The position numbers and the translations under genes are program-made. A model generated the notes under the pieces. The model was not told the DNA's origin and did no database searches. It saw only the letters and a program-made list of their open reading frames with translations. Positions 1 through 15,000 of a stretch of DNA of 64,000 nt are shown one piece after another. Source of the DNA: a virus (lineage: Duplodnaviria; Caudoviricetes); IMG/VR virus record IMGVR_UViG_3300021399_000103, positions 1-64,000 of that record; one strand, written 5' to 3'. Within the stretch, counting starts at the first letter, position 1. Each line of letters starts with the position of its first letter.

Positions 1-132
1 TCAATAGGCAAGCCCCACTTTTTTTGGGAAAAATAATTTTTTATTTTTTTCTTAAAAAACTCTTGACAAAAATTGCGTGATCCGGTATACTGCGAAAATC
101 TGGTCGCCACAGCCGGCGGCGACCAGCCAAAC

Positions 133-154
133 AAAAAAGCCCCCATTGGGGGCT
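133..154 (-). terminator. intrinsic terminator
   Basis: AGCCCCC-AAT-GGGGGCT followed by T6 on the minus strand, right after the stop of 160-492. Confidence 0.75.
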
Positions 155-159
155 ATCGC

Positions 160-492
160 TTAGGCGACCGTGAAGATGGTAGCCTTGCCGTCCTTAGCCT
201 TGACGACCTCGCCACTGTCGACCATCTGCTTGAGCAGAGCAGAAGCCTTCTGAACGGAGACGTCAACCGCCTTGCCTACTGCGGTGGCAGTCATGCCCTC
301 AGAATCAGCGAGCACGTCGAGCATCTGAGCCTTGATGCCCTCGTTCTCCTTCTGAACCTTGGTAGGCTTGCGTTCACCTGTGGACTTGCGGACGGACTTC
401 AGTGCTCTCTCAACGAGGAAGTTGAACTGCTCTTCTGTGAGTGTGTCGAATGCGATAGCGTTGATCTGTTCTGTAATAGTTGTCTTTGTCAT
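160..492 (-). CDS. winged helix-turn-helix protein (paralog 1 of 3)
   Basis: KPTKxQxxN...HTH (SVQKASALLKQMV)...wing pattern shared with 1797-2150 and 3754-4095. Own TTGACA/TATTAT promoter and AAAGGT RBS. Confidence 0.75.
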   Translation of the reverse strand: MTKTTITEQINAIAFDTLTEEQFNFLVERALKSVRKSTGERKPTKVQKENEGIKAQMLDVLADSEGMTATAVGKAVDVSVQKASALLKQMVDSGEVVKAKDGKATIFTVA

Positions 493-584
493 GTGTAATC
501 ACCTTTTAACCTTTCTTTTTACACTTATATAATATCATGTTTTTTTAATTTGTCAATACTTTTTGAAGATTTTTTTTAAATTTT

Positions 585-863
585 TTGGTTATTTTACAGG
601 GACTGCCCGCCCTGTAAGGTTACCATCCTAAGTGGTTATTTCGTGTCTCTCTCACTCTCACGGCTTTGGTCTTCTATTTGGGAGTCGGCTCCCCCACTTC
701 CTTGATTGCTCCTCTTGGACAAGTCTTGTTGTAAGAACTAAACCTCAACCATTGGTAACCCCCATGGTAAGGGACATGTGTTTTCTCTCAGTGTTCATGC
801 CCACTATTAGAAGTTCGCGTGTTCTAATGCACTGATTTGTGGAGTTTTCCTTCTCCTTTTTAC
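585..863 (-). ncRNA. candidate ~280-nt structured ncRNA
   Basis: Promoter TTGACA(897-892)/TATACT(875-870) with no credible ORF downstream. Several hairpins: ATTAGAA/TTCTAAT, GGGAG/CTCCC, TTACAGGG/CCCTGTAA. Confidence 0.5.
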
Positions 864-1188
864 ACTATTAGTATAACACTTTTTTTTAATTTGTCAAGAG
901 GTTTTGGCAACTTTTTTTCAATTTTTTTATTGCCCTCAACCTACGGAGTTATTTCACACACGATTCGGGTAGTTCCTACTCCCTCTTGACATTATTAGTA
1001 TACCATAGGATGAGAGCCTTGTCAAGACTTTTTTTAACTTTTTTTCAAGTTTTTTTGAGTGCTGACTTGGTGCGGCTCTCTATCCTTGGTACATCTATAA
1101 TAATAATGATTTATTTTTAAATGTCAACAGTTTTAGGAAAATTTTTATAAGTTATTTTTTTCACAAGTTCGCCCCGGAAGAACCGACT

Positions 1189-1258
1189 TTGTGAATTTTT
1201 TCACATGTACGGAGTTAGTGCCCGCTAACTACACACGCGCTTGTGAATTTTTTCACAA
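1189..1258. promoter_or_regulatory. two Rex-type operators (TTGTGAA-N4-TTCACAA)
   Basis: 1241-1258 is a perfect match; 1189-1206 has one mismatch. Confidence 0.7.
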
Positions 1259-1294
1259 ACTTTGCGCACCGGGCGGTTAGCTGCGACTAACTAT

Positions 1295-1310
1295 TGTTTC
1301 ACGTGAAACA
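1295..1310. promoter_or_regulatory. parS: parS site (ParB/Spo0J binding)
   Basis: TGTTTCACGTGAAACA, an exact 16-bp match to the bacterial parS consensus. Confidence 0.85.
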
Positions 1311-1320
1311 AAAAAAGCCG

Positions 1321-1737
1321 TTAGGCTTTTTTCGCACGATGCTTTGTAAGTTTTACAGTGTAAGCATTTTCGTTGTAAGTGAAACTGATTTCAGCTTCAT
1401 TCTTGAAAGTCAGATTTTCAATTTCACCGTTCAACTGAAACCCTTCAAGCGGAATCCGCAAGATATCGAAAATGTGCTTTTTATCTTCATCAACTTTTCT
1501 CTCTCTTGGGGTTTCCTGTTTTGCTCTTGGTTTTCTTTCGGCTTTCGTTACGGAGCGAACAAGCTTTTTCTGTTCGTCAGTCAGTGCGAACAATTCTTTG
1601 TCGCCTTTGTCGATAGCGTCGTCGCATTCAATCAGATCGATCGCTTCTTCTCTTGAGCATTTCAGAGTTTTCATGTGTTTCTGAATGAGTGCTTCATACT
1701 GTTCATTTGTGCGTTTAGCCATTGGGTTATACCTCAC
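1321..1737 (-). CDS. hypothetical protein
   Basis: 138-aa ORF with its own promoter. The start may be the ATG at 1722 behind GAGG. Confidence 0.7.
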   Translation of the reverse strand: MRYNPMAKRTNEQYEALIQKHMKTLKCSREEAIDLIECDDAIDKGDKELFALTDEQKKLVRSVTKAERKPRAKQETPRERKVDEDKKHIFDILRIPLEGFQLNGEIENLTFKNEAEISFTYNENAYTVKLTKHRAKKA

Positions 1738-1796
1738 TTTCTGTAATAATTATAGCTTAGGGAAGGGGTTTTGTCAACCCCTTTCCCAAACTTTTT

Positions 1797-2150
1797 TTAG
1801 GCTTTTGTGAAGTAAGCTCTTCCTTTTTCTTCAGTTCTGATAACTCTTCCATCAAGTCTCAAACCTCTTACAAGAGCCGAAACCTTATTCCCTGAAAATT
1901 CTTTCAGTTCATCAATTGCCTGATGGATTTCAGTTACAGTATAACGTTTTCCATCTTCCATTCTCTCATAAATCAGATTCATGAGTTCAGCATTGGCAAG
2001 CTGATTCTTTGTAGGTTTTGTGGACTTGCGTTCATTCTTTTTCGCAAGCAGATCGAGTTCATGGTTGATGAATGCGATTTCAGTTTCATCTGTCAGATGT
2101 GTGCGAATCTGTTCGAACATTTCTCTTTTTGTCATTTTTGCGTTTGTCAT
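1797..2150 (-). CDS. winged helix-turn-helix protein (paralog 2 of 3)
   Basis: MTKREM...HELDLLAKKN...KPTKNQ...KVSALVR...KGRAYF. Confidence 0.75.
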   Translation of the reverse strand: MTNAKMTKREMFEQIRTHLTDETEIAFINHELDLLAKKNERKSTKPTKNQLANAELMNLIYERMEDGKRYTVTEIHQAIDELKEFSGNKVSALVRGLRLDGRVIRTEEKGRAYFTKA

Positions 2151-2612
2151 ACTTAATCACCTTTAACCTTTCTTTGTGCTTTTATTATAGCATCTCTTTG
2201 TTTTTTTGTCAAGAGGTTTTTTCAGATTTTTTTTAAGAAGATTCTTTTTTCTCTCTTCCCTTTTGACACTTATATAATAGCATTTTTAGAAATAATGTCA
2301 AGAGATTTTTTAAACTTTTTTTTGAAAGTTTTTTGTATCTCTTTTTTATTTCTATAATAATTATATCATTTTTTAAAAAATTGTCAACAAAAAAATTTGC
2401 TAATTTTTTCACAAAGTCGCCCGGGATCCCGCAAAAATCACATAATTTCACATAATTTTTCTCTTGACTTCTGGACGTGAGTGTGCTATAATTTTCGGTC
2501 GTTAGCGGCAGCTAACCGGCAACCGCAAATAAAGAAAAAAAATTTTTAAAAAAGTGTTGACATTATTTCCAAGAGTGCTATAATTAATACAGTAAAAGGA
2601 AGGTACAAAAAA

Positions 2613-3326
2613 ATGGCTTATTACATGACTATTGATACAGAAACTACAAATTCATTCGATGATGCTCTTGTGTATGACTTAGGGCTTGCGATTCATGATG
2701 AAAGCGGAAACGTGTTTCACACTGAAAGCTATGTTATTGCGGAAATCTTCTGTAATGATGAATTGATGAAGGTTGCTTATTTTGCGGAAAAGATTCCTAC
2801 CTATTGGAAAGAAATCAAGGAAGGAAAAAGAATTCTCACAACATTCAGAAACGCAAGAAATGAAGTTTTGTCTCTGATGAAGAGATACAATGTTAAAGCA
2901 ATAATTGCTCATAACGCTTATTTCGATTATAACGCATTGAATACAACATTGCGTTATCTCACTCAATCAAGAAAAAGATTTTTCTTCCCTTGGGGTTCTG
3001 TAATGTGGGATTCTCTGAGAATGGCAAAAACTACTCTTGGAAAAGATGAAAAATACACTTCTTGGTGTATTGAAAATAATTATCTTACTGAGAAATACAG
3101 AAAGCCGAAAATGACTGCTGAGGTATTGTATAGATACTTAACAAACAACCATGCATTCATGGAAGAACATACAGGACTCGCTGATGTAATGATTGAAAAA
3201 GAAATCACCGCTTACTTCCTCAAGAGAAACCATGCAGGCATGAAAAAGTGTTTGTTCAATCCTCGCAAGGAAGAAGATGTAAAAACCATGCTTGAATGGT
3301 GGACTGATAGTTTACTCTGTGAGTAA
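2613..3326 (+). CDS. DEDDh (DnaQ-like) 3'-5' exonuclease
   Basis: ExoI IDTET, ExoII HNAYFD, ExoIII HTGLAD. Promoter at 2557-2584 and AGGAAGG RBS. Confidence 0.85.
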   Translation: MAYYMTIDTETTNSFDDALVYDLGLAIHDESGNVFHTESYVIAEIFCNDELMKVAYFAEKIPTYWKEIKEGKRILTTFRNARNEVLSLMKRYNVKAIIAHNAYFDYNALNTTLRYLTQSRKRFFFPWGSVMWDSLRMAKTTLGKDEKYTSWCIENNYLTEKYRKPKMTAEVLYRYLTNNHAFMEEHTGLADVMIEKEITAYFLKRNHAGMKKCLFNPRKEEDVKTMLEWWTDSLLCE

Positions 3327-3521
3327 ACTTTTTGTTTACTATTAGTAAACTTGGCACGCCAAGAGACGTTGTCATACTGTGCACACAGGTCCAGGTGTGC
3401 CGTTCCGGGATTTTAAAATTTTTTAATTTTTTCGCAAAAATCGCTTGACAAATTGTCGGCGGTGTGTTATACTGGAAAAACTGCGCGCCTGGACCGTGGG
3501 CGCGCAGCCAATAAGCTAAAT

Positions 3522-3558
3522 AAAAAACCGCTGACCCAAGGAGGAGGAGGTCAGACGG
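3522..3558 (-). terminator. terminator hairpin with CCUCCUCCUCCUU loop
   Basis: Minus strand CCGTCTGACC-TCCTCCTCCTT-GGGTCAGCGG-TTTTTT. Confidence 0.65.
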
Positions 3559-3653
3559 CTCAAGCGTCTAAATGGTGAGCTTTAGGTCAGCTCAAACCGC
3601 TCATGCGTCTTTTTGATTTCAGTCAAGAACTGATTTGCTTTAAACTTGACCAA

Positions 3654-3725
3654 TGCGCCCTGTGGGAGTTGAACCCACACTCCACCGATTAAGAGTCGGT
3701 TGCTTTACCATTAAGCTAAGGGCGC
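3654..3725 (-). tRNA. trnK: tRNA-Lys(CTT)
   Basis: Cloverleaf with GCGCCCT/AGGGCGC acceptor stem, TAGCTTAATGGTAAAGC D arm, ACCGA-CTCTTAA-TCGGT anticodon arm and GGTTCAACTCC T arm. No encoded CCA. Confidence 0.92.
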
Positions 3726-3753
3726 AAGAGGGAGGGGCTTTCGCCCCTTGCGA

Positions 3754-4095
3754 CTACTCAGCGAGTCCGAATGTAGCCTTGACCTTGCCTTTGGCTTCAG
3801 CCACCTTGACGAACTTTGCGTTTCTGTTCAGAATCGCACTTGCTTTCTGATTGCTGATGTTGAACGCTTCTTCGATCTGTCCGCAAGTTACCGCTCCATT
3901 CTCAGCGATAAATTCAGCGATCTTTTCAGCGAGTTCAGCGTTAGCGACCTGTGCTTTGCTTGGCTTGTTGGACTTGTAATTCTTCTTTTTGTCGAGCAAC
4001 TCAAGTTCGTGTCCGCAGAATCCTACAATCTCAGCATCGTTAGCACATACAGTCATAATCTTGTTCAGCATTTCTCTCTTTGTCATGGTCATCAC
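3754..4095 (-). CDS. winged helix-turn-helix protein (paralog 3 of 3)
   Basis: MTKREM...HELELLDKK...KPSKAQ...SNQKASAIL. Confidence 0.75.
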   Translation of the reverse strand: MMTMTKREMLNKIMTVCANDAEIVGFCGHELELLDKKKNYKSNKPSKAQVANAELAEKIAEFIAENGAVTCGQIEEAFNISNQKASAILNRNAKFVKVAEAKGKVKATFGLAE

Positions 4096-4454
4096 CTTTT
4101 TACCTTTCTTTTTACACTATTAGTATACAACTTTTGTGGGGAGTTGTCAACCCCTTTTTTCAACTTTTTTTATTTTTTTACAGTGATTCTTTTTTTCTCT
4201 CACCAACCAAGCAGATTGACGGTTGCTGATTCAGCGGTTGTCGCTCTTTCTTTTGGTACACTCTTATTATAGCATCTTTCAGCTATTTGTCAAGTACTTT
4301 TTTTAATTTTTTTTAATTTTTTTATGTGGGCGCCCATCTCCCACGTGGGCGTTAGTTCGGCGGATCTCTCATACCTTTCTCCTTACGCTTATATTGTAGC
4401 ACTCTTGGATTTTTTGTCAAGCACTTTTTTAATTTTTTTCTAAAAGATTAATTT

Positions 4455-4631
4455 TTATTCAACTTCAATCTCATTAATCCTTGTCCTCATATCAAGGTCT
4501 TTTTCTTCTTTATGGAAGTTTTCAGTGTATTTTACCGCTTTTTCTCTTGTAGAGAAATATCTTCTTCTTGAAGATTCCATTCCAAACATTCTCGCACGAG
4601 AATTAAAGATTTCTACTTCATAAATAATCAT
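4455..4631 (-). CDS. small hypothetical protein (58 aa, MIIYEVEIF...)
   Basis: Hand-translated ATG..TAA behind the standard promoter + GAGG module. Confidence 0.65.
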   Translation of the reverse strand: MIIYEVEIFNSRARMFGMESSRRRYFSTREKAVKYTENFHKEEKDLDMRTRINEIEVE

Positions 4632-4712
4632 TTTTTGTTCCTCTCTTTCTTTACACTATTATTATAGCACTTTTGGATTTTTTGTCAATACTTTTTTTTA
4701 ATTTTTTTGTTT

Positions 4713-4796
4713 AGGTTTGGGAAGTTATGTTCGGCGTTTCCGCTCACAGTCCTTCAACTCTTTCAAGTTCTCGGCTCTCTCTCGCTTCCCTTACCT
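4713..4796 (-). ncRNA. candidate small structured RNA with GAAA tetraloops
   Basis: Promoter upstream, closing stem GGGAAG/CTTCCC, hairpins AACTT-GAAA-GAGTT and GCG-GAAA-CGC, no ORF. Confidence 0.45.
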
Positions 4797-4912
4797 TACA
4801 TCTATAATAATAATGATTTATTTTAAAATGTCAACACTTTTGGAGAAAAAAATCATTTTTTTATTAATTAATTTTTTCACAAGCGTGCCCGGGCGCATTT
4901 AAAAAACCCGCT

Positions 4913-5578
4913 TTAGAAAGCGAGTTTTCTCATTGGCTTGTGTTGAGCCATACATTTTACAGTGATAGCAATTTCGATTAATACATCATCAAGTCCCTGA
5001 TGTTCTTCTGTAAAGTCGTTATCTTTTGAAATGTATTTGTAAAGAATTTCAGCGGTTTTTCTTACTTTTCCATTCTTACAGAGATAACCATTTTTTTCAC
5101 AGAATTTAATATATCTTTTTTGCTTACAGATCGTATCTTCCGCCATTTTCATTGAATCGTAAAGCGGTACACCATAAGGAAGAAAGTATCTGTATTTTGA
5201 TTTTGAAGTGTAGCGAATTGTAGTAGTTAATGAACGGTAATCAAATCGTGCATTATGTGCGATAATTGCTTTTACATTGTATTTATCGCATAATTCTTTT
5301 ACGATCTTTTTAGCGGTGAATACGCTGATCATTTTGCGATTTCCGCTTTTTAATGCGGTTTCATATTTTGGTAATTTTTCCGCATAGTAAGAAGATTTCA
5401 TTAAATCTTTTTCTCTTGCGTAAATGTCATAAATTACATAGCTTGCGGTTTCGTAAATGTTTCCATGCTTATCATGAATAGCGAGACCTAAATCATAAGC
5501 GAGCGGACAATCTAAACTATTGGCGGTCTCAGTGTCAATAGTCATGTAATAAGTTCTGCGCTTGTCAATTTTTTTCAT
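4913..5578 (-). CDS. DEDDh 3'-5' exonuclease (paralog of 2613-3326)
   Basis: IDTET, HNARFD and HQGLDD motifs. Confidence 0.85.
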   Translation of the reverse strand: MKKIDKRRTYYMTIDTETANSLDCPLAYDLGLAIHDKHGNIYETASYVIYDIYAREKDLMKSSYYAEKLPKYETALKSGNRKMISVFTAKKIVKELCDKYNVKAIIAHNARFDYRSLTTTIRYTSKSKYRYFLPYGVPLYDSMKMAEDTICKQKRYIKFCEKNGYLCKNGKVRKTAEILYKYISKDNDFTEEHQGLDDVLIEIAITVKCMAQHKPMRKLAF

Positions 5579-5762
5579 TTCAAATTTACCTCACTTTTTA
5601 CTCTTAAATTATAGCATTTTCAAATGAAAAGTCAACCCAAAATTTAGGGATTTTTAAAAATAAAATCAAAATAAAATCAAAAAATCACTTGACATTTGGC
5701 GGGCTGATGTGGTATAATTTTCTATCGTTAGCGGGAACTAACTGCCTGGGCGCATAAAAAAA

Positions 5763-6170
5763 TCAACCCCACAGTTCAGCAGGATTGATTGCTTTTCCTC
5801 TCCAAGAGTTGCGGATAGGTTCAGAATCATCGACAAGAATTGCATTTTCAGAATTTTTCAAATTCTTGTTATGACCATACGCTCTGTAAATTCTTTTTGT
5901 GATTGAAGGGAAGAATTTATCGAGCCATTCATTCTTTTTTTCAATGACTTTATCACAGTATTCTTTACTTGCGTTTAATGGCGTCATACTCAGAACTCTT
6001 ACATCATACTCATCAGAAGGGAAGAAGATTCTCAGTGTTTCTTCTGTGATGATTCTTCTATCACCACCGAATACCTCAGCATCCTCAGCACGCAATTTTT
6101 CAAGCCATCCATCCTGACCATACAGATCGAAGATTGTTCCATCCATGTCTAAGTAAACGATTTTTCTCAT
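5763..6170 (-). CDS. HAD-superfamily phosphatase (5'/3'-nucleotidase-like)
   Basis: Motif I LDMDGTIFD and motif IV ILVDD. Ends in TGA. Confidence 0.75.
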   Translation of the reverse strand: MRKIVYLDMDGTIFDLYGQDGWLEKLRAEDAEVFGGDRRIITEETLRIFFPSDEYDVRVLSMTPLNASKEYCDKVIEKKNEWLDKFFPSITKRIYRAYGHNKNLKNSENAILVDDSEPIRNSWRGKAINPAELWG

Positions 6171-6246
6171 TTTTTTACCTCTCTTTACATTATTTATTAT
6201 AGCATCTTATTTTTTAATGTCAATAGTTTTTTCAAAAAAAAGTGTA

Positions 6247-6456
6247 TTATTTATAATAATAATACGCTTCATCAATAGTCAAAGGTTTGCCAGGATCCCA
6301 GGCGGCATTTTCACTTTGCTCTCTTTTTTCTTTCTTTTCTTTTTCTTCAAGTTCCGCAATTCTGTATTTTAAATTACGAATTTCATCTAAAGCATCTTCG
6401 TAGTTTTGGCGATAAATCTCAGCCATGTCAAGTTCGCAGTAATTTTTATCAAACAT
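6247..6456 (-). CDS. hypothetical coiled-coil protein
   Basis: ORF with GAGG RBS. Confidence 0.6.
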   Translation of the reverse strand: MFDKNYCELDMAEIYRQNYEDALDEIRNLKYRIAELEEKEKKEKREQSENAAWDPGKPLTIDEAYYYYK

Positions 6457-6499
6457 TTCTTTTACCTCTCTTTTTTTATAGTATTATTTTAACATTTTT

Positions 6500-6997
6500 T
6501 TAAAATTTTGTCAATAGTGAAGATTTTATTTTGTGCATTTTTTCATAGTGTCGAATTGCGCAATTAAATCTATGATTCCATTTGCGCATGGCGGTCTCGT
6601 TCTGCCTGTAAACTAAAACCGCATACTCTGTAGCTTTTTTCTCTATTGGAAGATTAAAGTAGGCTTGGCAATACTCAGAATCAGCGACATTTTCAAGAGC
6701 CTTTTCTGTTGCTTGTTCTGTCCATTCTTTATCAGTGAATAAATCAACTGTATAATGATGCCCTAGCTCATGCAGTATGGACATAGTGAAAACATTTTCA
6801 TTCGTTAAGTTAAAGTTGAAATTTTCTTTCAGAAATTTTTTCCATTCACTATTGGCTTCTGTTGGCTCGTCATAAGTAAATGTTATGACCTCATCGTCAG
6901 GCATAAAACAAAACATGTTCGCTTCATAGACTGAACACACACCACCAATAAACTTGTTAATCCATTTTTCCATCTTCATACTTTTATTATAACACAT
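6500..6997 (-). CDS. HExxH metalloprotease-like protein
   Basis: ILHELGHH motif with a downstream E..A helix. Start codon uncertain. Confidence 0.6.
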   Translation of the reverse strand: MCYNKSMKMEKWINKFIGGVCSVYEANMFCFMPDDEVITFTYDEPTEANSEWKKFLKENFNFNLTNENVFTMSILHELGHHYTVDLFTDKEWTEQATEKALENVADSEYCQAYFNLPIEKKATEYAVLVYRQNETAMRKWNHRFNCAIRHYEKMHKIKSSLLTKF

Positions 6998-7184
6998 TTT
7001 TTTATAATGTCAATAGGTTTTGTGAAAAAATTTTGCGTTTATGGCGCGCGCTACTTCCGCCAGAAAAATCTGCTTATGCTAAAACAACGCAATTTTCGCC
7101 CGCTGCACCCGGCGGCGGGCGACCAAAAAAAAGCCATATAGTATGGTTTTAGTATACCCCAAAAAGAAAAATGTCAAGTCTTTT

Positions 7185-7334
7185 TTAAAGATTTTCAAGT
7201 TCTTTTTCAAGTCTTGCCATTTCAGCTTTAAGCTCGGAAACTCTGCGGAAATTGTAACCTCTATCAGCCATTTCTTCGTAGAAGATTTCTTCGTCGATTG
7301 CGTGGATTCTTTTTTCAAGTTCTGTTCTTGTCAT
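7185..7334 (-). CDS. small coiled-coil protein (49 aa, MTRTELE...)
   Basis: Start reassigned to the ATG behind the AAAGAGG RBS. Confidence 0.6.
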   Translation of the reverse strand: MTRTELEKRIHAIDEEIFYEEMADRGYNFRRVSELKAEMARLEKELENL

Positions 7335-7432
7335 TTTATTTACCTCTTTCTTTTTACACTTATATAATAGCCGGTTTATTTTTTTTGTCAAGTACTTTTT
7401 TTAAATTTTTTTATTTTTTTTATAACAGATTG

Positions 7433-7873
7433 TCAAGCATTTTTCAGCTTGGCAATCTGTTTTGTGTTCATCAATGTAGCTGAATCAAGTTTAATTTGAA
7501 TCTGTTTTCCATTGACTTCAATGTCACCTTGTACCCAAAACGGAATATTATCTTTTTCCCAAACTTGACCGAAGTATTCAGTTACAAGCTTTTCGAAGAT
7601 TTCACCTTTGTTGTACTTTTCAGCTTTCAGCATTTCAGCAGAACCTAAGCAAATCGGATTTTTTTTCATCAATTGCTTTTTAAGATTCTTTTTGATTCTT
7701 AAGCGAAGGTTTTCACCTTGATTTCTACTTGCCTGTTCTACTGTTAAGAACCTTGGCATGATTTCCGCAACCTCTACCATGTAAAGCATTTTATTTTCGG
7801 TGAATCCTAAGATGTAGCTATCAGCAGCTGAATGGTTTCTATAATGTTTGATCAGTGTTCTTTTTGTTGTCAT
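7433..7873 (-). CDS. hypothetical protein (possible PD-(D/E)xK fold)
   Basis: GEIFE...GDIEV..QIK pattern. The TGA stop overlaps the next -35 box. Confidence 0.65.
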   Translation of the reverse strand: MTTKRTLIKHYRNHSAADSYILGFTENKMLYMVEVAEIMPRFLTVEQASRNQGENLRLRIKKNLKKQLMKKNPICLGSAEMLKAEKYNKGEIFEKLVTEYFGQVWEKDNIPFWVQGDIEVNGKQIQIKLDSATLMNTKQIAKLKNA

Positions 7874-7938
7874 TTCCTTTTCCTCTTTTCTTTTTACACT
7901 TATATAATAGCTTGTTTTTCCGGTTTGTCAACACCTTT

Positions 7939-8094
7939 TTATAAAACTTTTTCAAAAGTTTTTTCGATGTTTTCGAACACATAACCGCATCCGAACATGT
8001 CGCACAAGTCTTTCCAAGCGTCATCTTCATTCATGCGAATCATAGCGATTTCTTCACCAGTTAATGTATCAATAAATCTGTAAGCTGTTTTCAT
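7939..8094 (-). CDS. small hypothetical protein (51 aa, MKTAYRFID...)
   Basis: Hand-translated; promoter + GAGG RBS. Confidence 0.6.
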   Translation of the reverse strand: MKTAYRFIDTLTGEEIAMIRMNEDDAWKDLCDMFGCGYVFENIEKTFEKVL

Positions 8095-8321
8095 TTTTAT
8101 TACCTCTCTTTATTTACATTATTATTATAGCTTGTTTAAATTAAATGTCAATAGTTTTGGGAAAATTTTTTTCGGGAAATTTAAAAAAATTTTTTTAATT
8201 TTTTTGTTTTTTCCTCTTGACTTCTGGCTTCGTGCGTGGTATAATTTTCTGCCGTTAGCGGTGACTAACTCACTTGTGAATGTGATAACTTTCACAAACT
8301 TTCGCACAAAAAAAACAGAGG

Positions 8322-8450
8322 TTAGAACTCAACCCAGTTGGGATCTCCCTCTGTTTTCTCAAGGAACGCTTCCTCAACGATTTCCTTGGACTCAGCACTG
8401 ATTTCCAGTACTTCGAACGTTACAACGTTAACCCACATTTTTCTAAACAT
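8322..8450 (-). CDS. small acidic protein (42 aa, MFRKMWVN...)
   Basis: Hand-translated; promoter + GAGG RBS. Confidence 0.6.
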   Translation of the reverse strand: MFRKMWVNVVTFEVLEISAESKEIVEEAFLEKTEGDPNWVEF

Positions 8451-8516
8451 TTTCAATTCCTCTCTTTCTTTTTACACTTATATAATAGCATAAAAAAAGT
8501 GTTTGTCAACACTTTT

Positions 8517-8681
8517 TTAAAAAATAATTTCTTTGAAACGGAATGATGTATCGCTTTCTTCTTCTTTCTCAAATCCACAATAAGTATCGGTAAGATAATC
8601 TTCAATAGCAGTCTTTTTTACATAATCAGGAACATCAATAATAGCATCTTGTTCAATAATAACTTTAACTCTGACCATCAT
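8517..8681 (-). CDS. small acidic protein (54 aa)
   Basis: Hand-translated MMVRVKVIIEQD...; GAGGT RBS. Confidence 0.6.
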   Translation of the reverse strand: MMVRVKVIIEQDAIIDVPDYVKKTAIEDYLTDTYCGFEKEEESDTSFRFKEIIF

Positions 8682-8702
8682 TTTTATCACCTCTTTCTAT
8701 AA

Positions 8703-8864
8703 TTAGTATACCATAGAATGCTTACCTCTGCAAGCATTTTTTGAAGATTTTTTCTTTTTATCTTCAACTACTTTGTGACCGAGTTTGCGCAAGTTGCGGT
8801 TAAGTTCCTCATTCCGCAGATTGTACATGGTAATAGTTCCATTCTCATTTTTTCTCATTTTCAT
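8703..8864 (-). CDS. small basic protein (53 aa)
   Basis: Hand-translated MKMRKNE...HKVVEDKKKKSSKNACRGK; AGGAG RBS. Confidence 0.55.
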   Translation of the reverse strand: MKMRKNENGTITMYNLRNEELNRNLRKLGHKVVEDKKKKSSKNACRGKHSMVY

Positions 8865-8918
8865 CTTTTGGTCTCTCCTTTATTTACATTATTATTATAG
8901 CCTACTGGCTATAACTTG

Positions 8919-9134
8919 TCAATGTTTTTTATCATTATTTTCTACAAAAATTTTATAGTATTTTACCATTTGATCAACAGTTTCCCAACCATGTTTAGAT
9001 AATGTAACTTTAGCCATGTTTCCTTTAGTTTCCCTCCAACCAAAGAAACTATTAAATAAGTATCCTTTACTTTCAGCGTAAGTGCAAGCAATAACGTATT
9101 CAATGCTATTTTCATCAATCCATTTTGTTATCAT
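8919..9134 (-). CDS. hypothetical protein
   Basis: 71-aa ORF with RBS. The TGA stop overlaps the next TTGACA. Confidence 0.6.
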   Translation of the reverse strand: MITKWIDENSIEYVIACTYAESKGYLFNSFFGWRETKGNMAKVTLSKHGWETVDQMVKYYKIFVENNDKKH

Positions 9135-9190
9135 TTTTATTACCTCTTTCTATTATTATTATAATACTTTATTTTTATTTGTCAATACTT

Positions 9191-9391
9191 TTAATCTAAA
9201 ATTCCAAGATAAGCACCACAGAACATTACAATAATTACTGAAAGCAATCCGATTGCATACCATTTTTGCATGGTTTCAGTAGTTGCTTTTTCCCATTTTT
9301 TCATGATGAAGTATACACCGAATGGAGTTACCATAAGAACATAGCACAGAACAATAGTTGTAAAAGTGAATAATACCATTTTATCGAACAT
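9191..9391 (-). CDS. small membrane protein (2 TM)
   Basis: Two hydrophobic segments; own promoter. Confidence 0.65.
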   Translation of the reverse strand: MFDKMVLFTFTTIVLCYVLMVTPFGVYFIMKKWEKATTETMQKWYAIGLLSVIIVMFCGAYLGILD

Positions 9392-9568
9392 TTCATTTAC
9401 CTCTTTCTTTTTACACTATTATTATAGCACTGGTAATTTATTTGTCAATACTTATTTTCGGGATTTTTTTATTTTTTTTCTAAAAAATTTTTTATTTTTC
9501 TCTTGACATGCTGGCCCGGTTGTGCTATAATTTCGAAATGCCAGTTCGTAACACGATAAAAAAACTAC

Positions 9569-9688
9569 TTAGCAGTAGTTTTTAATGACTCTTACGAGTT
9601 TACCAAAGTTTTTCTCGTGGAATCTGATTTCAGCTTTGCTGAGCTTTCTAGCGAGCGCCTCGCCTCTTTCGAATACGTACAATGTCAT
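9569..9688 (-). CDS. 39-aa protein, paralog of 12148-12267
   Basis: MTLYVFERGEALARKLSKAEIRFHEKNFGKLVRVIKNYC. The paralog differs largely by synonymous changes. Confidence 0.75.
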   Translation of the reverse strand: MTLYVFERGEALARKLSKAEIRFHEKNFGKLVRVIKNYC

Positions 9689-9740
9689 TTTTTTATCTCC
9701 TTTTCTTTACACTTATATAATAGCATCTTTATTTTATCTG

Positions 9741-9869
9741 TCAAGCATTTTTTTTAATTTTTTGTAAATCTTTTAACATTTCCTCAAAGCATGGTGCATC
9801 TTTTTTCGGATCGCTCCAAGTACATTTACCATTTTTATTAAATGGACACTCCCAGTCATTACATTTCAT
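9741..9869 (-). CDS. small Cys-rich protein (42 aa)
   Basis: MKCNDWECPFNKNGKC...PC; TGA stop inside the next TTGACA. Confidence 0.6.
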   Translation of the reverse strand: MKCNDWECPFNKNGKCTWSDPKKDAPCFEEMLKDLQKIKKNA

Positions 9870-9946
9870 TTTTATTACCTCTTTCTTTTTACAATTATAT
9901 AATAGCGTATTTTTCTTATTTGTCAACACTTTTTATAAAAAAAATT

Positions 9947-10114
9947 TTAGAATTTTTCTAAAATTTTTACATTCGCAATGATGATAGCAATTGCCAACAG
10001 AATCACAGGAATTGCGTCAAGAGTGAAGTCATTGATTGATACCAAGCAGACACCAAGGAACATTGTGATTGTTTCAAGTGCGAAGCGGATTGACGGTCTA
10101 AGTGTTCTTTTCAT
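9947..10114 (-). CDS. small membrane protein (55 aa)
   Basis: Hand-translated MKRTLRPSIRFALE...; two hydrophobic stretches. Confidence 0.6.
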   Translation of the reverse strand: MKRTLRPSIRFALETITMFLGVCLVSINDFTLDAIPVILLAIAIIIANVKILEKF

Positions 10115-10303
10115 TTTTTTACCTCTCTTTTATTTACATTATTATTATAACATAATTATTTAAATTGTCAATACTTTATTTTTAGGAATTTTTATAAATT
10201 TTTTTATTTTTTTCATATTTTTCTCTTGACATTGCGGCCGGAGTGTGGTATAATTTTTCGACCCGTTAGCGGTAGCTAACTGCGCAAATAAAAAGCCTAT
10301 TAA

Positions 10304-10483
10304 TTAGGCAAAGAAATCTTTCATTGAAGGATGAGTAAACAAGACGTGATCCATTCCGATTTCATCAATGAATTCTTTGAAATCTTCAAAATCTTCCTCT
10401 CCATCAAAATCTTTTTCCGTGTATTCCTTAACCATAGGGAATTCATCTTCGTAAGCATCAAACAGAACTTTAAACAATGTCAT
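10304..10483 (-). CDS. highly acidic small protein (59 aa)
   Basis: Hand-translated; 18 of 59 residues are D/E. Confidence 0.65.
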   Translation of the reverse strand: MTLFKVLFDAYEDEFPMVKEYTEKDFDGEEDFEDFKEFIDEIGMDHVLFTHPSMKDFFA

Positions 10484-10569
10484 CTTTTTTACCTCTTTTC
10501 TTTTTACACTATTATTATAGCACCGGCATTTTATTTGTCAATACTTTTTTAATAAAAAAAGAAGATTTT

Positions 10570-10830
10570 TTAATCTTCTTTTGAGTGAATCAGCACAACG
10601 TTATTTAAATGTGTGTAATAAACCGCTCCATCTGTAAAGGTTACTTGTACCGCATCGCTATCTTCCCAATCTTTCCAACTTGAGACTTCACCTTCTACAA
10701 TTTCACCTGTTGGAAGATTGATAATTGCATAGTCGAAATTCCAAGTAGTATCAATGATTGTTCTGTTGCATCCTGTTAATGTTGCAACAATAGCGAGACC
10801 GCAGATAATTTTTGTAAGAATGTTTTTCAT
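10570..10830 (-). CDS. lipoprotein
   Basis: Signal peptide with an LTG-C lipobox. Confidence 0.75.
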   Translation of the reverse strand: MKNILTKIICGLAIVATLTGCNRTIIDTTWNFDYAIINLPTGEIVEGEVSSWKDWEDSDAVQVTFTDGAVYYTHLNNVVLIHSKED

Positions 10831-10922
10831 TTTTTCTACCTCTTTTCTTTACATTATTATTATAGCATAGTTGATAGTAATGTCAACACTTTTTTATAAA
10901 AAAAATAAGTTTTTACTTATTT

Positions 10923-11084
10923 TTAATTAACGAATCCTGTGAAGTATCCTTCTTCATCAAATTCAAACGTGATACCTTCATTGAATCCTGTGAAGATTGA
11001 GATGTTTCTTTCATCTTCATAATCAATTTCAGCGTCCGTGCAAGCGATTAAATCTCTGATATCGTCCATTGTGAATCTTCTCAT
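10923..11084 (-). CDS. small acidic protein (53 aa, MRRFTMDD...)
   Basis: Hand-translated; promoter + RBS. Confidence 0.6.
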   Translation of the reverse strand: MRRFTMDDIRDLIACTDAEIDYEDERNISIFTGFNEGITFEFDEEGYFTGFVN

Positions 11085-11176
11085 TTCTATTACCTCTTTT
11101 CTTTTTACATTATTATTATAGCATCTATTTATTTATTGTCAATACTTTTTTATAAAAAAAATAAGGAATTTTTTCC

Positions 11177-11326
11177 TTATTCCATTGAGAAGACTACATC
11201 AACTTCTTCTCTGTCTCTTTCAACTTCTACGTGAGGAAGTCCGCATCCGTTTCTTTCATCGAATACAAGAACTTGCGCATCTTGTGGAAGATTACTGAGC
11301 ATTTCCATTAATTCTCTAACTGTCAT
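11177..11326 (-). CDS. small hypothetical protein (49 aa, MTVRELMEMLSNLPQDAQV...)
   Basis: Common phage MTVxELxxxLxxxPxD N-terminus. Confidence 0.65.
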   Translation of the reverse strand: MTVRELMEMLSNLPQDAQVLVFDERNGCGLPHVEVERDREEVDVVFSME

Positions 11327-11517
11327 TTTATCACCTCTTTCTTTTTACACTTATATAATATCATCTTTATTTTATTTGTCAACACTTATTTTTAGGAAAA
11401 TACATAATTTTTTAAAATTTTTTTTATTTTTACTCTTGACTTCTGGCGTTGGATCTACTATAATTTTCTGCCGTTAGCGATAACTAACTCCGCAGATAAA
11501 AAAATAAACCTTTCGGT

Positions 11518-11673
11518 TTAGTAGTTTTCCCAAATTTCTTTGATAAACTTTTTGTCGTCAAGATCAGCGTCCCAACCATACTCACAAGTGATTTGATTGA
11601 TTCCTGACATGAATGCTTTCCATTCTTCTTCATTTAATTCCATGATTGCTTTTACGATTTCTTCTCTTTTCAT
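11518..11673 (-). CDS. small acidic protein (51 aa)
   Basis: Hand-translated; three Trp, all TGG. Confidence 0.6.
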   Translation of the reverse strand: MKREEIVKAIMELNEEEWKAFMSGINQITCEYGWDADLDDKKFIKEIWENY

Positions 11674-11752
11674 TTTCTTTACCTCTTTTCTTTTTACACT
11701 TTTATTATACTATCTTTTGGATTTTTGTCAATACCTTTTTTTAATTTTTTTA

Positions 11753-11905
11753 TTAATCTTTGCGGTAGATTTCTAACACGTAGACGTTAGGTTCACCGAT
11801 TTTTCTGCTCCAAGCAAATGCGGTGTTAGGATTGTTTTTAGCTACAGCCTTTTTGTAAGCGATAAGTTTGTATTCACTTGTGAATTCTTTTACGATCTTT
11901 TTCAT
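11753..11905 (-). CDS. small basic protein (50 aa)
   Basis: Hand-translated MKKIVKEFTSEY... Confidence 0.6.
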   Translation of the reverse strand: MKKIVKEFTSEYKLIAYKKAVAKNNPNTAFAWSRKIGEPNVYVLEIYRKD

Positions 11906-12147
11906 GTTTATTTCCTTCTTTCTTTTTACACTTATATAATAGCACCAGTTTCTTAAATGTCAACACTTTTTTGCAATTTTTTTAAAAAATTTTTTAGTTA
12001 GTTAGTCTAAACTAACTTAGCTGACTTTTGGGATCTCACACTTGTGAAAAAATTCACAAACTCTCGCAACGCTTTTATGCTTTAGTGCGCTAAAGTGCAA
12101 TTTTCTGCCGTTAGCGGCAGCTAACTAAAGCTAATAAAAAAACTGCC

Positions 12148-12267
12148 TTAGCAGTAGTTTTTTACAACTCTTACCAGTTTCCCGAACTGTTTTTCGTGGA
12201 ATCTGATTTCAGCCTTATTCAGTTTTCTTGCGAGTGCCTCGCCTCTTTCGAAGATGTAAAGTGTCAT
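12148..12267 (-). CDS. 39-aa protein, paralog of 9569-9688
   Basis: MTLYIFERGEALARKLNKAEIRFHEKQFGKLVRVVKNYC. Confidence 0.75.
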   Translation of the reverse strand: MTLYIFERGEALARKLNKAEIRFHEKQFGKLVRVVKNYC

Positions 12268-12357
12268 TTTGTATTTCCTCCTATTTCTTTTTACACTTAT
12301 ATAATAGCATCTTTATTTTTCTTGTCAATGCCTTTTTTAATTTTTTTTAGATTTTTT

Positions 12358-12434
12358 GATAAGCTCCTATGCAACTCCTATTGGATTGCAGGTCTGTCGC
12401 CCCTCGGCTATCCGACTCGCTCTCGGAGCTTATC
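12358..12434 (-). ncRNA. candidate small multi-branch RNA
   Basis: Perfect 10-bp closing stem GATAAGCTCC/GGAGCTTATC enclosing two hairpins; dedicated promoter; no ORF. Confidence 0.5.
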
Positions 12435-12676
12435 TCCCTTTATCTGTAATAATTATAGCAAATCCTCAGCGAATGTCAACACTTCTGAAGAAATTTTTTT
12501 AACAAATTTTAGTTAGTTAGCTTAAACTAACTTGTTAACTTGTGAATGTGATAACTTTCACAAACTCTGGTTAGTTTAAGCTAACTAACTTCATTGATTT
12601 AACGTGCTAAAGTTAGTTAGCCTAAACTAACTCAACTGACGCTTGTGAATTTTTTCACAAATGCTCCCGAAAAAAA

Positions 12677-12886
12677 TCAGGCTTGCCATTCGGCTACAGC
12701 CTGTCTGTACATCTCAGCCATTTTTGGAAACCCATGGCGATCAAGTTTTCTTGATTCGCACATAGCCCATTCAACGAACGGCCATTCGTCTTCCAGGAGA
12801 AGGCTCTCTTCGAGATCTTCCTGGTAGCAGTTCCAGATGTTGAGCATTACACGCTCATGGTAGTTCAATTCTTCGGCAAACATCAT
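12677..12886 (-). CDS. acidic protein, paralog of 13097-13312
   Basis: FAxELNxHExxMLNIW...AEWQA; ends in TGA. Confidence 0.75.
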   Translation of the reverse strand: MMFAEELNYHERVMLNIWNCYQEDLEESLLLEDEWPFVEWAMCESRKLDRHGFPKMAEMYRQAVAEWQA

Positions 12887-13096
12887 TTTGTATTCCTCCT
12901 TTATTTACCTTACACTATTATTATAGTCTTTTCTAAAAAGATGTCAACTAGTCTGAATAAATTTGTCGGTATTTTTTTAACTTTTTTTTGATAGTTATGA
13001 AAACTTTTTCATTGTGAATTTTTTCACAAGTTTACTCGCAATAGATCAGCCATTGAACTTGTGAAAAAATTCACAAGTTCTCCCAAAGAAAAACCG

Positions 13097-13312
13097 CTAG
13101 GCTTGCCATTCAGCTAATGCCATGCGGTAATCATCGGCGTATTCAGCCATGTCCTCAGATTCGTAGAACTCGATCTCGTCTCTGAGCCAATCAGCGAAGC
13201 CGTAATCCTCATCGACGTCATCGAGCAAGCCGTCGAAGCTAGCTGCCCAATACTCCATCCAGATGTTGAGCATTTTCTGCTCATGTGCGTTTAATTCAGC
13301 GAAACCTAACAT
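13097..13312 (-). CDS. very acidic protein (possible DNA mimic)
   Basis: About 30% D/E and aromatic-rich. Ends in TAG at the residue where its paralog ends in TGA. Confidence 0.75.
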   Translation of the reverse strand: MLGFAELNAHEQKMLNIWMEYWAASFDGLLDDVDEDYGFADWLRDEIEFYESEDMAEYADDYRMALAEWQA

Positions 13313-13573
13313 TTTTATTTCCTCCTATTTATCTTACACTTATTATTATAGTTATTTAGGTCTTGATGTCAACACTTCCGGCAAAAAAAATCACTTTTTT
13401 TCGCATTTTTTTTATTCACATTTTGAAAATGTTTTCATAAGTTTTACTAATAGATAGTTAGTTAGTCTAAACTAACTCGACAACTTTATAACTTTTACCT
13501 AGTTAGTTAGTCTAAACTAACTGCACTGAATCTTGTTCATTAACGCTTGTGAAAAAATTCACAAATTCACCCG

Positions 13574-13600
13574 TTAGCACTCAACCACTGAGAGTGCTAA
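13574..13600. promoter_or_regulatory. CIRCE element (HrcA operator)
   Basis: TTAGCACTC-AACCACTGA-GAGTGCTAA, exact consensus. Confidence 0.92.
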
Positions 13601-13905
13601 CGCACGGACTTTAATACATTAAAGTATTAAAGTTAGTTAGTCTAAACTAACTCTTCACCGCTTTAACGCACTAAAGTTAGTTAGCCTAAACTAACTGGTC
13701 GTACTTGTGAAAAAATTCACAAACTTTCCCGGCGAGTCACAAACATTCTCTGATTAGCTTGTGAATTTTTTCACAAATGAACCGCCCTGGCTCAGCCATT
13801 CCAAAAGAGAAACTTTGTGAAAAAATTCACAAATGAATAAGTTTTAATTATTCTTACTTTGTGAAAAAATTCACAAGTTCTCTCGCCTTGCCCAAGACCT
13901 GGCGA

Positions 13906-13932
13906 TTAGCACTCACTGCCTGCGAGTGCTAA
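13906..13932. promoter_or_regulatory. CIRCE element (HrcA operator)
   Basis: TTAGCACTC-ACTGCCTGC-GAGTGCTAA, exact consensus with a different spacer. Confidence 0.92.
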
Positions 13933-14094
13933 CACGCACATTCTAGCACACCTTACTCGATTTGTCAAGTGCTTTCGGGAATTTTTTATAAAAAATTTTT
14001 TTACAAATTTTTCTTGACTTTTTTGGTGGTGTGTGCTATACTGGCTAAACTTGCGCCGCCACACCCGCAGCCGGCGCAGGGACGCCTTTGTGGT

Positions 14095-15000
14095 GTAGCT
14101 GTAAGTAGTGTAAATATTAGTGTTGTGCTATTACTGTTACATTACTATCACTGTTGGTTATCTCTTCTCTTCTCTTCTTCTCTTGTTGTGCTATCTCTTA
14201 CTCTTGCTGTGTTGTCTATCTATCTATCTGTTAGTATGTATGTATACTGTTGTAGTATAGTATGTAGTACTACACTACTACTTATCTACTACCTACTGTC
14301 TACTACTACTACTACTGTTAGTACTGTTGTTAGTGTGTGTTATCTATCTATTTACTTATCTATCTATCTATCTATTACTGTTAATGTATGTATCATACTG
14401 TGTGTATAGTATAGTGTATGTATGTATACTATACTATGTGTGTAGTATACTGTGTGTATGTGTATAGTATAGTACATAGTATGTATAGTATAGTATAGTG
14501 TATAGTATACTATGTATGTATGTATTGTTATTATGTTGTATTGTTGTTGTTGTGTGTATGTCTTTGTGTGTGTTGTTGTTGTTGCTTGTGTGTTGTGTGT
14601 GTCTTTACTGTGTGTGTCTCTCTCCTTGCTGACGTCCTGCCTGGCCGTGCCCTCTGCCTCCCTGCCTGTGCCTCTCTTTGTGCTTACTTTGTTGGTTGAG
14701 TGTTTGGTTAGATGTGGTTATTATTATTACTATTATTTATTAATAATGTTGTGCGCTGACAGTGTCCTCTGTGCTGCGTGTAGGTTAGCTGTGTGCGCTT
14801 ACAGCAAGCCTTTGTGCTGCCTTGATGACCCAACGCCGCAACTCTCTTCTCTTCCTTGTTGCCTGCGTGTGTCTCTTACTACACTACCTTGTCATGCTGC
14901 TTGTGTATCTATTGCTTTGCGTGTATTATTACTTATTCTCTTGGTTGTGTGCGCGTCTTTACTGCGCACACGCTGTTGATTGCGTTAAGACTCTTTAAGG
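14095..15000. repeat. low-complexity strand-asymmetric microsatellite-like tract
   Basis: Imperfect (TATC)n, (CTA)n, (TATAG)n, (TGT)n and (TG)n runs. Confidence 0.85.

Follow-up and report, generated by a model that had tools for sequence, protein, structure and literature searches.

Rex-type boxes in the early region of a large phage

The virus record IMGVR_UViG_3300021399_000103 comprises 176,419 bp, and its first 64 kb (64,000 nucleotides, hereafter the window) open with an early region in which 18-bp inverted repeats of the type recognized by the host repressor Rex recur between small genes. Rex binds DNA as a dimer when the NADH/NAD+ ratio is low. The two ends of the record overlap, with identity at 126 of 130 bases (1-130 versus 176290-176419), and the assembly is circular although the record is classed as linear. 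This end overlap indicates a genome that is circularly permuted or that has a collapsed terminal repeat. About 40 promoters close to the TTGACA-N16-18-TATAAT consensus lie on the minus strand of the early region, and each comes with a strong ribosome-binding site and a small open reading frame (ORF). The promoters are predicted to be of the sigmaA type and, like the ribosome-binding sites, are Firmicute-like. The phage is a large siphovirus-type phage of gut or rumen, and its portal is distantly related to the portals of Phass-1, Enterococcus phage EF1, phiCD211, and SPbeta-like phages. A megablast search of positions 1-14000 against GenBank phages returned no match.

An earlier note on this DNA had listed ten perfect boxes and four near-perfect ones in the early region, and all of them were recovered (Table 1). 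The ten perfect boxes, all of the pattern TTGTGAANNNNTTCACAA, are one and the same 18-mer, TTGTGAAAAAATTCACAA, present six times in forward orientation (spacer AAAA) and four times reversed (spacer TTTT), so that the form in the window is TTGTGAA-(AAAA/TTTT)-TTCACAA. Among the near-perfect boxes, the one at 1189 has a single mismatch and the other three have two. The last four perfect boxes, described as lying 44-56 bp apart, are spaced by 54, 56, and 44 bp, and the late arm proved free of boxes, as had been stated. The window has 13 copies of the core TGTGA-N6-TCACA, where shuffled sequences predict 0.03. The rest of the record adds only two copies, both of perfect consensus with an AATT spacer (TTGTGAAAATTTTCACAA), at 172834 and 173409; because the contig ends overlap, these two join the same early region as the boxes of the window. 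The whole genome thus holds 12 perfect TTGTGAA-W4-TTCACAA boxes and one copy with one mismatch, confined to a single stretch of ~17.5 kb that runs from 172.8 kb through the junction to 13.9 kb, and a search of the remaining ~158 kb found none.

Table 1. Rex-type boxes and accompanying features of the early region (positions in the window; G006 and G008 are close relatives of this phage)
Feature	Positions	Strand	Remarks
Early cassette region	1-13400, on across the contig junction to ~174.6 kb	-	Promoters, ribosome-binding sites, small ORFs
Rex-type box, one mismatch	1189-1206		TTGTGAATTTTTTCACAT; identical in G006
GTTAG-N6-CTAAC palindromes	1214-13695		16 in the window
Perfect Rex-consensus box	1241-1258		Identical in G006
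Perfect parS (ParB/Spo0J site)	1295-1310		TGTTTCACGTGAAACA, 16 bp; 0.01 expected by chance; conserved in G006 and G008
Degenerate box (TTGCTAA...)	2397-2414		TTGCTAATTTTTTCACAA; same imperfect sequence in G006 and G008
Variant box	8280-8297		ATGTGATAACTTTCACAA; downstream of a plus-strand promoter and GTTAG hairpin
Perfect Rex-consensus box	12042-12059		G006 ortholog identical
Variant box	12546-12563		ATGTGATAACTTTCACAA; two mismatches
Perfect box	12643-12660		17 nt beyond the stop codon of minus-strand ORF 12677-12886
Perfect box	13012-13029		Center ~108 bp upstream of the P(-) 12920-12947 start site
Perfect box	13059-13076		21 nt beyond the stop codon of minus-strand ORF 13097-13312
Perfect box	13547-13564		9 bp from the first CIRCE
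Perfect CIRCE (HrcA operator)	13574-13600		TTAGCACTC-N9-GAGTGCTAA; 0 expected in shuffles
Four perfect boxes in tandem (13705, 13759, 13815, 13859)	13705-13876		Gene-free DNA
Perfect CIRCE	13906-13932		Starts ~7 nt after the -10 of P(-) 13940-13968; 0 expected in shuffles
Promoter P(-)	13940-13968	-	Near-consensus sigmaA-type, TTGACA-17-TAGAAT with TG; fires leftward through CIRCE and five Rex boxes
Promoter P(+)	14014-14042	+	Starts the rightward arm; conserved in G006

The boxes lie between transcription units and outside core promoters

Every perfect box of this phage is placed after a minus-strand gene and before the next promoter, and the genes ahead of the boxes at 13059 and 12643 have no intrinsic terminator. 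Box centers lie 53 to 218 bp upstream of the nearest predicted start site or, alternatively, 65-219 bp downstream of P(-) 13940-13968, a promoter below which five boxes and both CIRCE elements are found. None of the 14 boxes of this phage falls within a core promoter (-45 to +20), and across 12 phage regions only 4 of 139 boxes do so, against ~22 expected. The interval from -140 to -46 of the predicted start site holds 60 of the 139 (~25 expected), and boxes are most frequent at -80 to -60. In the box-bearing phage sequences G004, G001, G009, and G010, the proximal box is located ~56-90 bp upstream of early promoters, sometimes within a tandem series of 33-35-bp period, and in this phage the degenerate box at 2397 stands 9 bp upstream of the -35 element of P(-) 2360-2387, within a divergent promoter region. 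The distances between boxes and promoters showed no helical phasing. Classical Rex operators sit on or directly beside the core promoter of the gene that they repress. None of the boxes of this phage is so placed, and a classical operator role is unlikely because the boxes avoid core promoters. The idea that the half-site TTCACA serves as a promoter -35 element (9 of 12 weak promoter-like matches) was rejected, such matches being no commoner than in shuffled sequences.

The dense array of boxes sits between P(+) 14014-14042 and the leftward early genes. Cumulative GC skew over the whole genome is V-shaped, with its global minimum at 14-16 kb, at this array, and its maximum near 97 kb; the minimum marks a putative origin and the point of transcription divergence. 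The shape of the skew fits bidirectional replication but is confounded with gene orientation. No cluster of DnaA boxes was found near the dense array. Just downstream of P(+), positions 14043-14130 are far better conserved with G006 than the adjoining array; this segment is G+C-rich and self-complementary and may be a structured leader or a small RNA.

Several other observations concern the genes of the early region. The minus-strand ORFs 12677-12886 and 13097-13312 (69 and 71 amino acids) are paralogs with 37% identity; both end in AEWQA, each is directly followed by a Rex-type box, and neither has a Pfam match. A weak bias in the right flank of the boxes (A-y-T-y-T-C-n-C) probably reflects duplication ancestry, because the two genes adjoining those boxes are paralogs. 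Promoters with an extended -10 element lie on the plus strand, antisense to early genes, at 2464-2516, 5709-5743, 8217-8269, 10226-10280, and 11436-11488. The region also contains a tRNA-Lys(CTT) gene on the minus strand (3653-3726). An Rfam search returned this tRNA-Lys and spurious palindrome matches only, and no family fitted the Rex-type boxes.

Other host-type sites accompany the boxes

The earlier note considered the Rex-type boxes alone, and they turn out to be one family in a panel of host-type sites that includes CIRCE, parS, and DtxR-like palindromes. The CIRCE element at 13906-13932 is found just downstream of a sigmaA-type promoter, at +1, the usual position of CIRCE at HrcA-controlled promoters; the element at 13574-13600 has no such promoter just ahead of it. 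G006 carries three CIRCE elements, with conserved arms and free spacers. The parS site is the sole copy in the 176-kb genome and adjoins the boxes at 1189 and 1241. Host parS sites are also used by phi29. LexA (Cheo) boxes were absent from the early region of this phage.

The GTTAG-N6-CTAAC palindromes number 20 in total, of which the 4 outside the window lie at 173.5-174.8 kb and none elsewhere in the genome. Nine have the long form AGTTAGTTAGYCTAAACTAACT (at 11997-13697, with one at 173541), which resembles the DtxR/IdeR iron box TTAGGTTAGCCTAACCTAA and is probably the operator of a host-type metal regulator. The same 20-mer occurs between a sigmaA-type promoter and feoAB in a Clostridia genome from goat colon, as well as upstream of MarR-type regulator genes beside a cation ATPase gene (Bacteroidales) or a methyltransferase gene (Chloroflexia). 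Five palindromes are GTTAGC-N4-GCTAAC, one at about +2 to +17 of each of the five plus-strand promoters listed above; they could be operators or 5' hairpins of antisense or small RNAs. A candidate for a phage-made protein binding the GTTAG palindromes is the product of a small predicted winged-helix ORF outside the window, at 118118-118474 of the genome. The best Pfam matches of this ORF include the DtxR-type N-terminal DNA-binding domain (PF01325, 26.4 bits). Another palindrome family, CTTTA-N6-TAAAG, is found at 12081-12094, 12598-12611, 13610-13623, and 13662-13675, and three of these four abut a long GTTAG palindrome.

Conservation and recurrence in other phages

G006 and G008 are close relatives, at 70-90% nucleotide identity, in which the boxes are retained; even the imperfect ones at 1189 and 2397 are preserved. 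When the array is aligned in synteny with G006, the box at 13815 is identical at 18 of 18 positions while its flanks are only about half identical, and the box at 13059 is likewise identical (18/18) within diverged flanks. The arms of the CIRCE at 13906-13932 are conserved in the same way (18/18), with changes at 4 of the 9 spacer positions. The syntenic alignment was preferred to a local one, in which the identities of boxes and flanks (91% versus 82%) are anchored on the boxes and may pair paralogs.

Boxes also recur beyond these relatives. Between 9 and 31 boxes are present in each of three more distant sequences, namely the relative G009, whose portal is homologous to that of this phage (31% identity), and the contigs G001 and G010. 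Many of these boxes are of the form TTGTTAA-N4-TTAACAA, with varying spacers and sometimes with mixed half-sites. Such mixing would break RNA pairing, and it fits recognition by a dimeric protein, not an RNA hairpin. Confined clusters of boxes were also found in G002, G003 (20 boxes in 13.6 kb of 202 kb), G004 (9 boxes in 10.8 kb of 71 kb), G005, and G009. No homolog of the portal of this phage was detected in G002, G003, G004, or G011. Five boxes were found in EF1, a cultured phage of Enterococcus faecalis, where they lie in the two non-coding stretches on either side of a block of small minus-strand genes. In relatives, boxes are spread across 10-14 kb, at one to three per cassette. The same cassette spacers of G001, G009, and G010 contain LexA-type boxes (GAAC-N4-GTTC, often CGAACATATGTTCG), 15-19 in each, typically just upstream of the Rex-type boxes.

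The complete 94.7-kb phage G011 carries a tandem array of ~29-bp period with dozens of degenerate TGTGAA-N4-TKMACA units, i.e., T(T/G)(C/A)ACA in the second half. This array resembles iterons, and the protein that binds it may come from the phage and not be Rex; it cautions that some phages may bind similar sites with a protein of their own.

Host Rex is the likely ligand of the boxes

The phage box equals the published Rex operator (ROP) of Gram-positive bacteria, an 18-bp inverted repeat of TTGTGAA and TTCACAA around four A/T-rich bases, which is quoted as TTGTGAANNNNTTCACAA overall and as TTGTGAAWWWWTTCACAA for Staphylococcus aureus (Ravcheev 2012 and Pagels 2010, as cited in PMC6391272 and PMC6018154). 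A validated operator of Streptococcus pneumoniae, TTGTGAAAAAATTAACAA, differs from it by one base, and the motif reported for Clostridiaceae, TTGTTAA-N4-TTAACAA, is the variant found in G001, G009, and G010. Rex has been described in E. faecalis (Vesic and Kristich 2013). Among the matches listed, two gut or rumen Ruminococcus genomes that contain the exact phage 18-mer encode Rex, and in one of them the 18-mer lies ~100 bp upstream of a pyruvate:ferredoxin oxidoreductase gene.

At the level of Pfam, no Rex N-terminal DNA-binding domain was found in this phage or in five other box-bearing phages, and a phage-encoded Rex was rejected on that ground. Scans for the Rex domain and for the Crp helix-turn-helix both picked up the winged-helix ORF mentioned above, which is on the minus strand; the match is generic, and the ORF has no counterpart in the box-bearing G002, G003, G004, and G009. 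The proposal of Rex operators in a phage early region, as made in the earlier note, is borne out at the level of sequence and comparison by the match to the consensus, the conservation of the boxes, their recurrence in unrelated phages, the clostridial variant, and the lack of a phage Rex domain. The alternative considered at the same time, a Crp/Fnr-family protein, agrees with the core of the box and is weakened by the unphased distances and by the TTGTTAA half-sites in relatives. We consider it likely that the boxes are docking sites for host Rex, and a host factor with the specificity of Rex is the economical reading.

Possible roles of the boxes

Capture of Rex appears to be the likeliest action of the boxes because they are of perfect consensus, occur in gene-free tandem runs, and stay off core promoters. 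We tentatively propose, at somewhat less than even chances, that their main role is that of a high-affinity sink titrating host Rex. At a low NADH/NAD+ ratio, the Rex dimer would dock on boxes in the non-coding early spacers, and as replicated phage DNA reached many copies, Rex would be drained from its few chromosomal operators and the host Rex regulon, with its fermentation and NAD+-regenerating genes, would be switched on. The CIRCE elements could likewise titrate HrcA and so turn on chaperone genes. In addition, Rex on the boxes may have a local effect by forming a roadblock downstream of early genes that lack a terminator. After replication the phage sites would outnumber those of the chromosome, of which two Rex-encoding Ruminococcus genomes (~2 Mb) have only two each at ≤1 mismatch, versus 13 in the phage. 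The partners identified, Rex, HrcA, and, in relatives, LexA, are all repressors, and draining them would switch on regulons that are plausibly useful to the phage. A wider form of this proposal, to which we give still less weight, is that the early spacers of large virulent Firmicute phages hold a DNA "sponge" of perfect operators for several host global repressors, the targets being Rex and HrcA in this phage, LexA in its relatives, and perhaps a metal repressor of the DtxR type, with parS alongside. It would turn on the fermentation, chaperone, SOS, and metal-uptake regulons of the host without any phage protein.

Some observations weigh against titration as the principal role. The fairly constant distance of boxes upstream of early promoters in several lineages, with its peak at -80 to -60, looks regulatory, although it could result from cassette duplication instead. 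The CIRCE at +1 is in a classical operator position, as are the GTTAG palindromes found between +2 and +17 at plus-strand promoters, and the phage seems to regulate some of its own promoters through sites of these types. The Ruminococcus genomes used for comparison are not those of a demonstrated host. Moreover, if the phage shuts off host transcription early, nothing would be gained from derepressing host regulons.

A different role, the main rival of titration but compatible with it, and one over which we favor titration, would be that of a host-state sensor, in which Rex, together with HrcA on CIRCE, controls early transcription or the start of replication of the phage in cis. Rex could form a roadblock behind terminator-less genes, cover the UP-element region of the promoter that follows, or sit on the origin region; the phage would then slow down in energy-starved cells, where NADH/NAD+ is low, and proceed once NADH rises, as phi29 does with Spo0A. 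Besides the precedents of the Spo0A boxes in phi29 and Nf and the CtrA sites in alphaproteobacterial phages, this role could account for the enrichment of boxes upstream of start sites in unrelated lineages (60 of 139) and for their position behind minus-strand genes, two of which are terminator-less. It would also suit the five boxes and two CIRCE elements below P(-) 13940-13968, one of them at +1, the short GTTAG palindromes in operator positions at plus-strand promoters, and the location of the dense array at the GC-skew minimum. We nevertheless give control in cis somewhat less weight than titration: -35 and -10 elements are free of boxes, most of the ~40 early promoters have none nearby, and a roadblock would change little where early genes each start from a consensus promoter of their own. 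A single promoter would not need runs of 4-7 perfect sites, the distances are unphased, and the skew is confounded with gene orientation.

It is improbable, in our estimation, that the boxes belong to another protein of the same specificity, whether a host upstream activator of the Crp/Fnr family or a DNA-binding protein encoded by the phage or delivered with its virion. The core TGTGA-N6-TCACA does fit Crp-type sites, positions of about -60 to -90 recall class I activation, the iteron-like array of G011 suggests a dedicated protein, and many small early proteins without assignment, along with the winged-helix ORF, could supply one. However, the conserved TT...AA flanks and the TTGTTAA/TTAACAA variant match Rex and not Crp, promoter distances lack the helical phasing expected of Crp class I or II sites, and the same consensus in lineages that share no portal points to a host factor. 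In addition, the scans for a phage Rex domain were negative, four box-bearing phages lack the winged-helix ORF, and unmistakably host-type sites (CIRCE, parS, and LexA boxes) stand alongside. Still lower in probability are structural repeats with an incidental likeness to Rex operators, such as origin iterons, boundaries of long terminal repeats, or a signal for injection stop or packaging. Clusters at either end of the early block and at the minimum of GC skew, a circular assembly that could hide a collapsed terminal repeat, and the same flanking layout in EF1 would suit such repeats. An incidental match would not be expected to recur in unrelated phages with varied spacers and both Rex half-site variants, and the occurrence of boxes in both orientations, at irregular spacing, and in copies 12 kb apart also speaks against it, as do the spread of boxes over 10-14 kb in relatives, at one to three per cassette, and the lack of a DnaA-box cluster. 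Finally, RNA hairpins that terminate or stabilize early transcripts might be suspected from palindromes just behind the stop codons of genes without intrinsic terminators. This explanation was rejected as highly improbable, since the predicted fold is weak (-4.9 to -5.8 kcal/mol) and lacks the U-tract of an intrinsic terminator; furthermore, boxes occur in both orientations relative to transcription, mixed half-sites in relatives would break the pairing, and no Rfam family matches.

Relation to known systems and significance

The closest precedent is provided by phi29 and Nf, in which host Spo0A boxes repress early promoters and, in phi29, also replication (Castilla-Llorente, Meijer and Salas 2009, PMC2731898). 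As in those virulent Firmicute phages, consensus sites for a host global regulator lie in the early and putative origin region here, where host physiology could act on phage DNA, and these sites are conserved among relatives. Their few sites, however, overlap or adjoin early promoters and origins, and repression and a replication block have been shown there, whereas the sites described here are for a different predicted regulator (Rex, with HrcA here and LexA in relatives) and are perfect, far more numerous, arranged in tandem, and located outside core promoters. A host-type parS is a further likeness to phi29 and Nf, which also carry parS sites.

On bacterial chromosomes, Rex operators usually come alone or in pairs, often deviate from the consensus, and cover part of the promoter of a gene for redox metabolism or fermentation. 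The phage shares with them the identical 18-bp inverted repeat, and its relatives share the clostridial variant, but it has 12 perfect copies that lie upstream of or between units of small genes. CtrA sites similarly recur in alphaproteobacterial phages, as sites of a host master regulator that are proposed to tie the lytic program to host state ("lytic deferment," PMC9437464); regulator, clade, and layout differ, and CtrA is proposed in that account to control phage genes, whereas arrays of repressor sites outside promoters are found here. In a laboratory effect treated by decoy-site theory, multicopy high-affinity operators can drain a low-abundance repressor and derepress its regulon (PMC4374843). 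The many boxes on replicating phage DNA would correspond to this situation, although in the literature searched repressor titration is known as an artifact, a tool, or a model and not as a natural phage strategy. The literature search turned up no description of Rex or CIRCE sites in phages.

If true, the sponge function would be a new mechanism, a host takeover by DNA sequence alone. If Rex does bind the boxes, phages of gut and rumen Firmicutes would be wired into the NADH/NAD+ sensor of their hosts, and CIRCE, LexA boxes, and parS would connect them to further host circuits. Such phages would use repressor titration to reprogram the metabolism of the host, or else its energy state to time their lytic program. 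The cultured phage EF1, with the same boxes and layout, and its host E. faecalis, which has Rex, make the idea directly testable. In both cases the interaction of phage and host would gain a layer that needs no phage protein, which could help explain the behavior of phages in the fluctuating gut.

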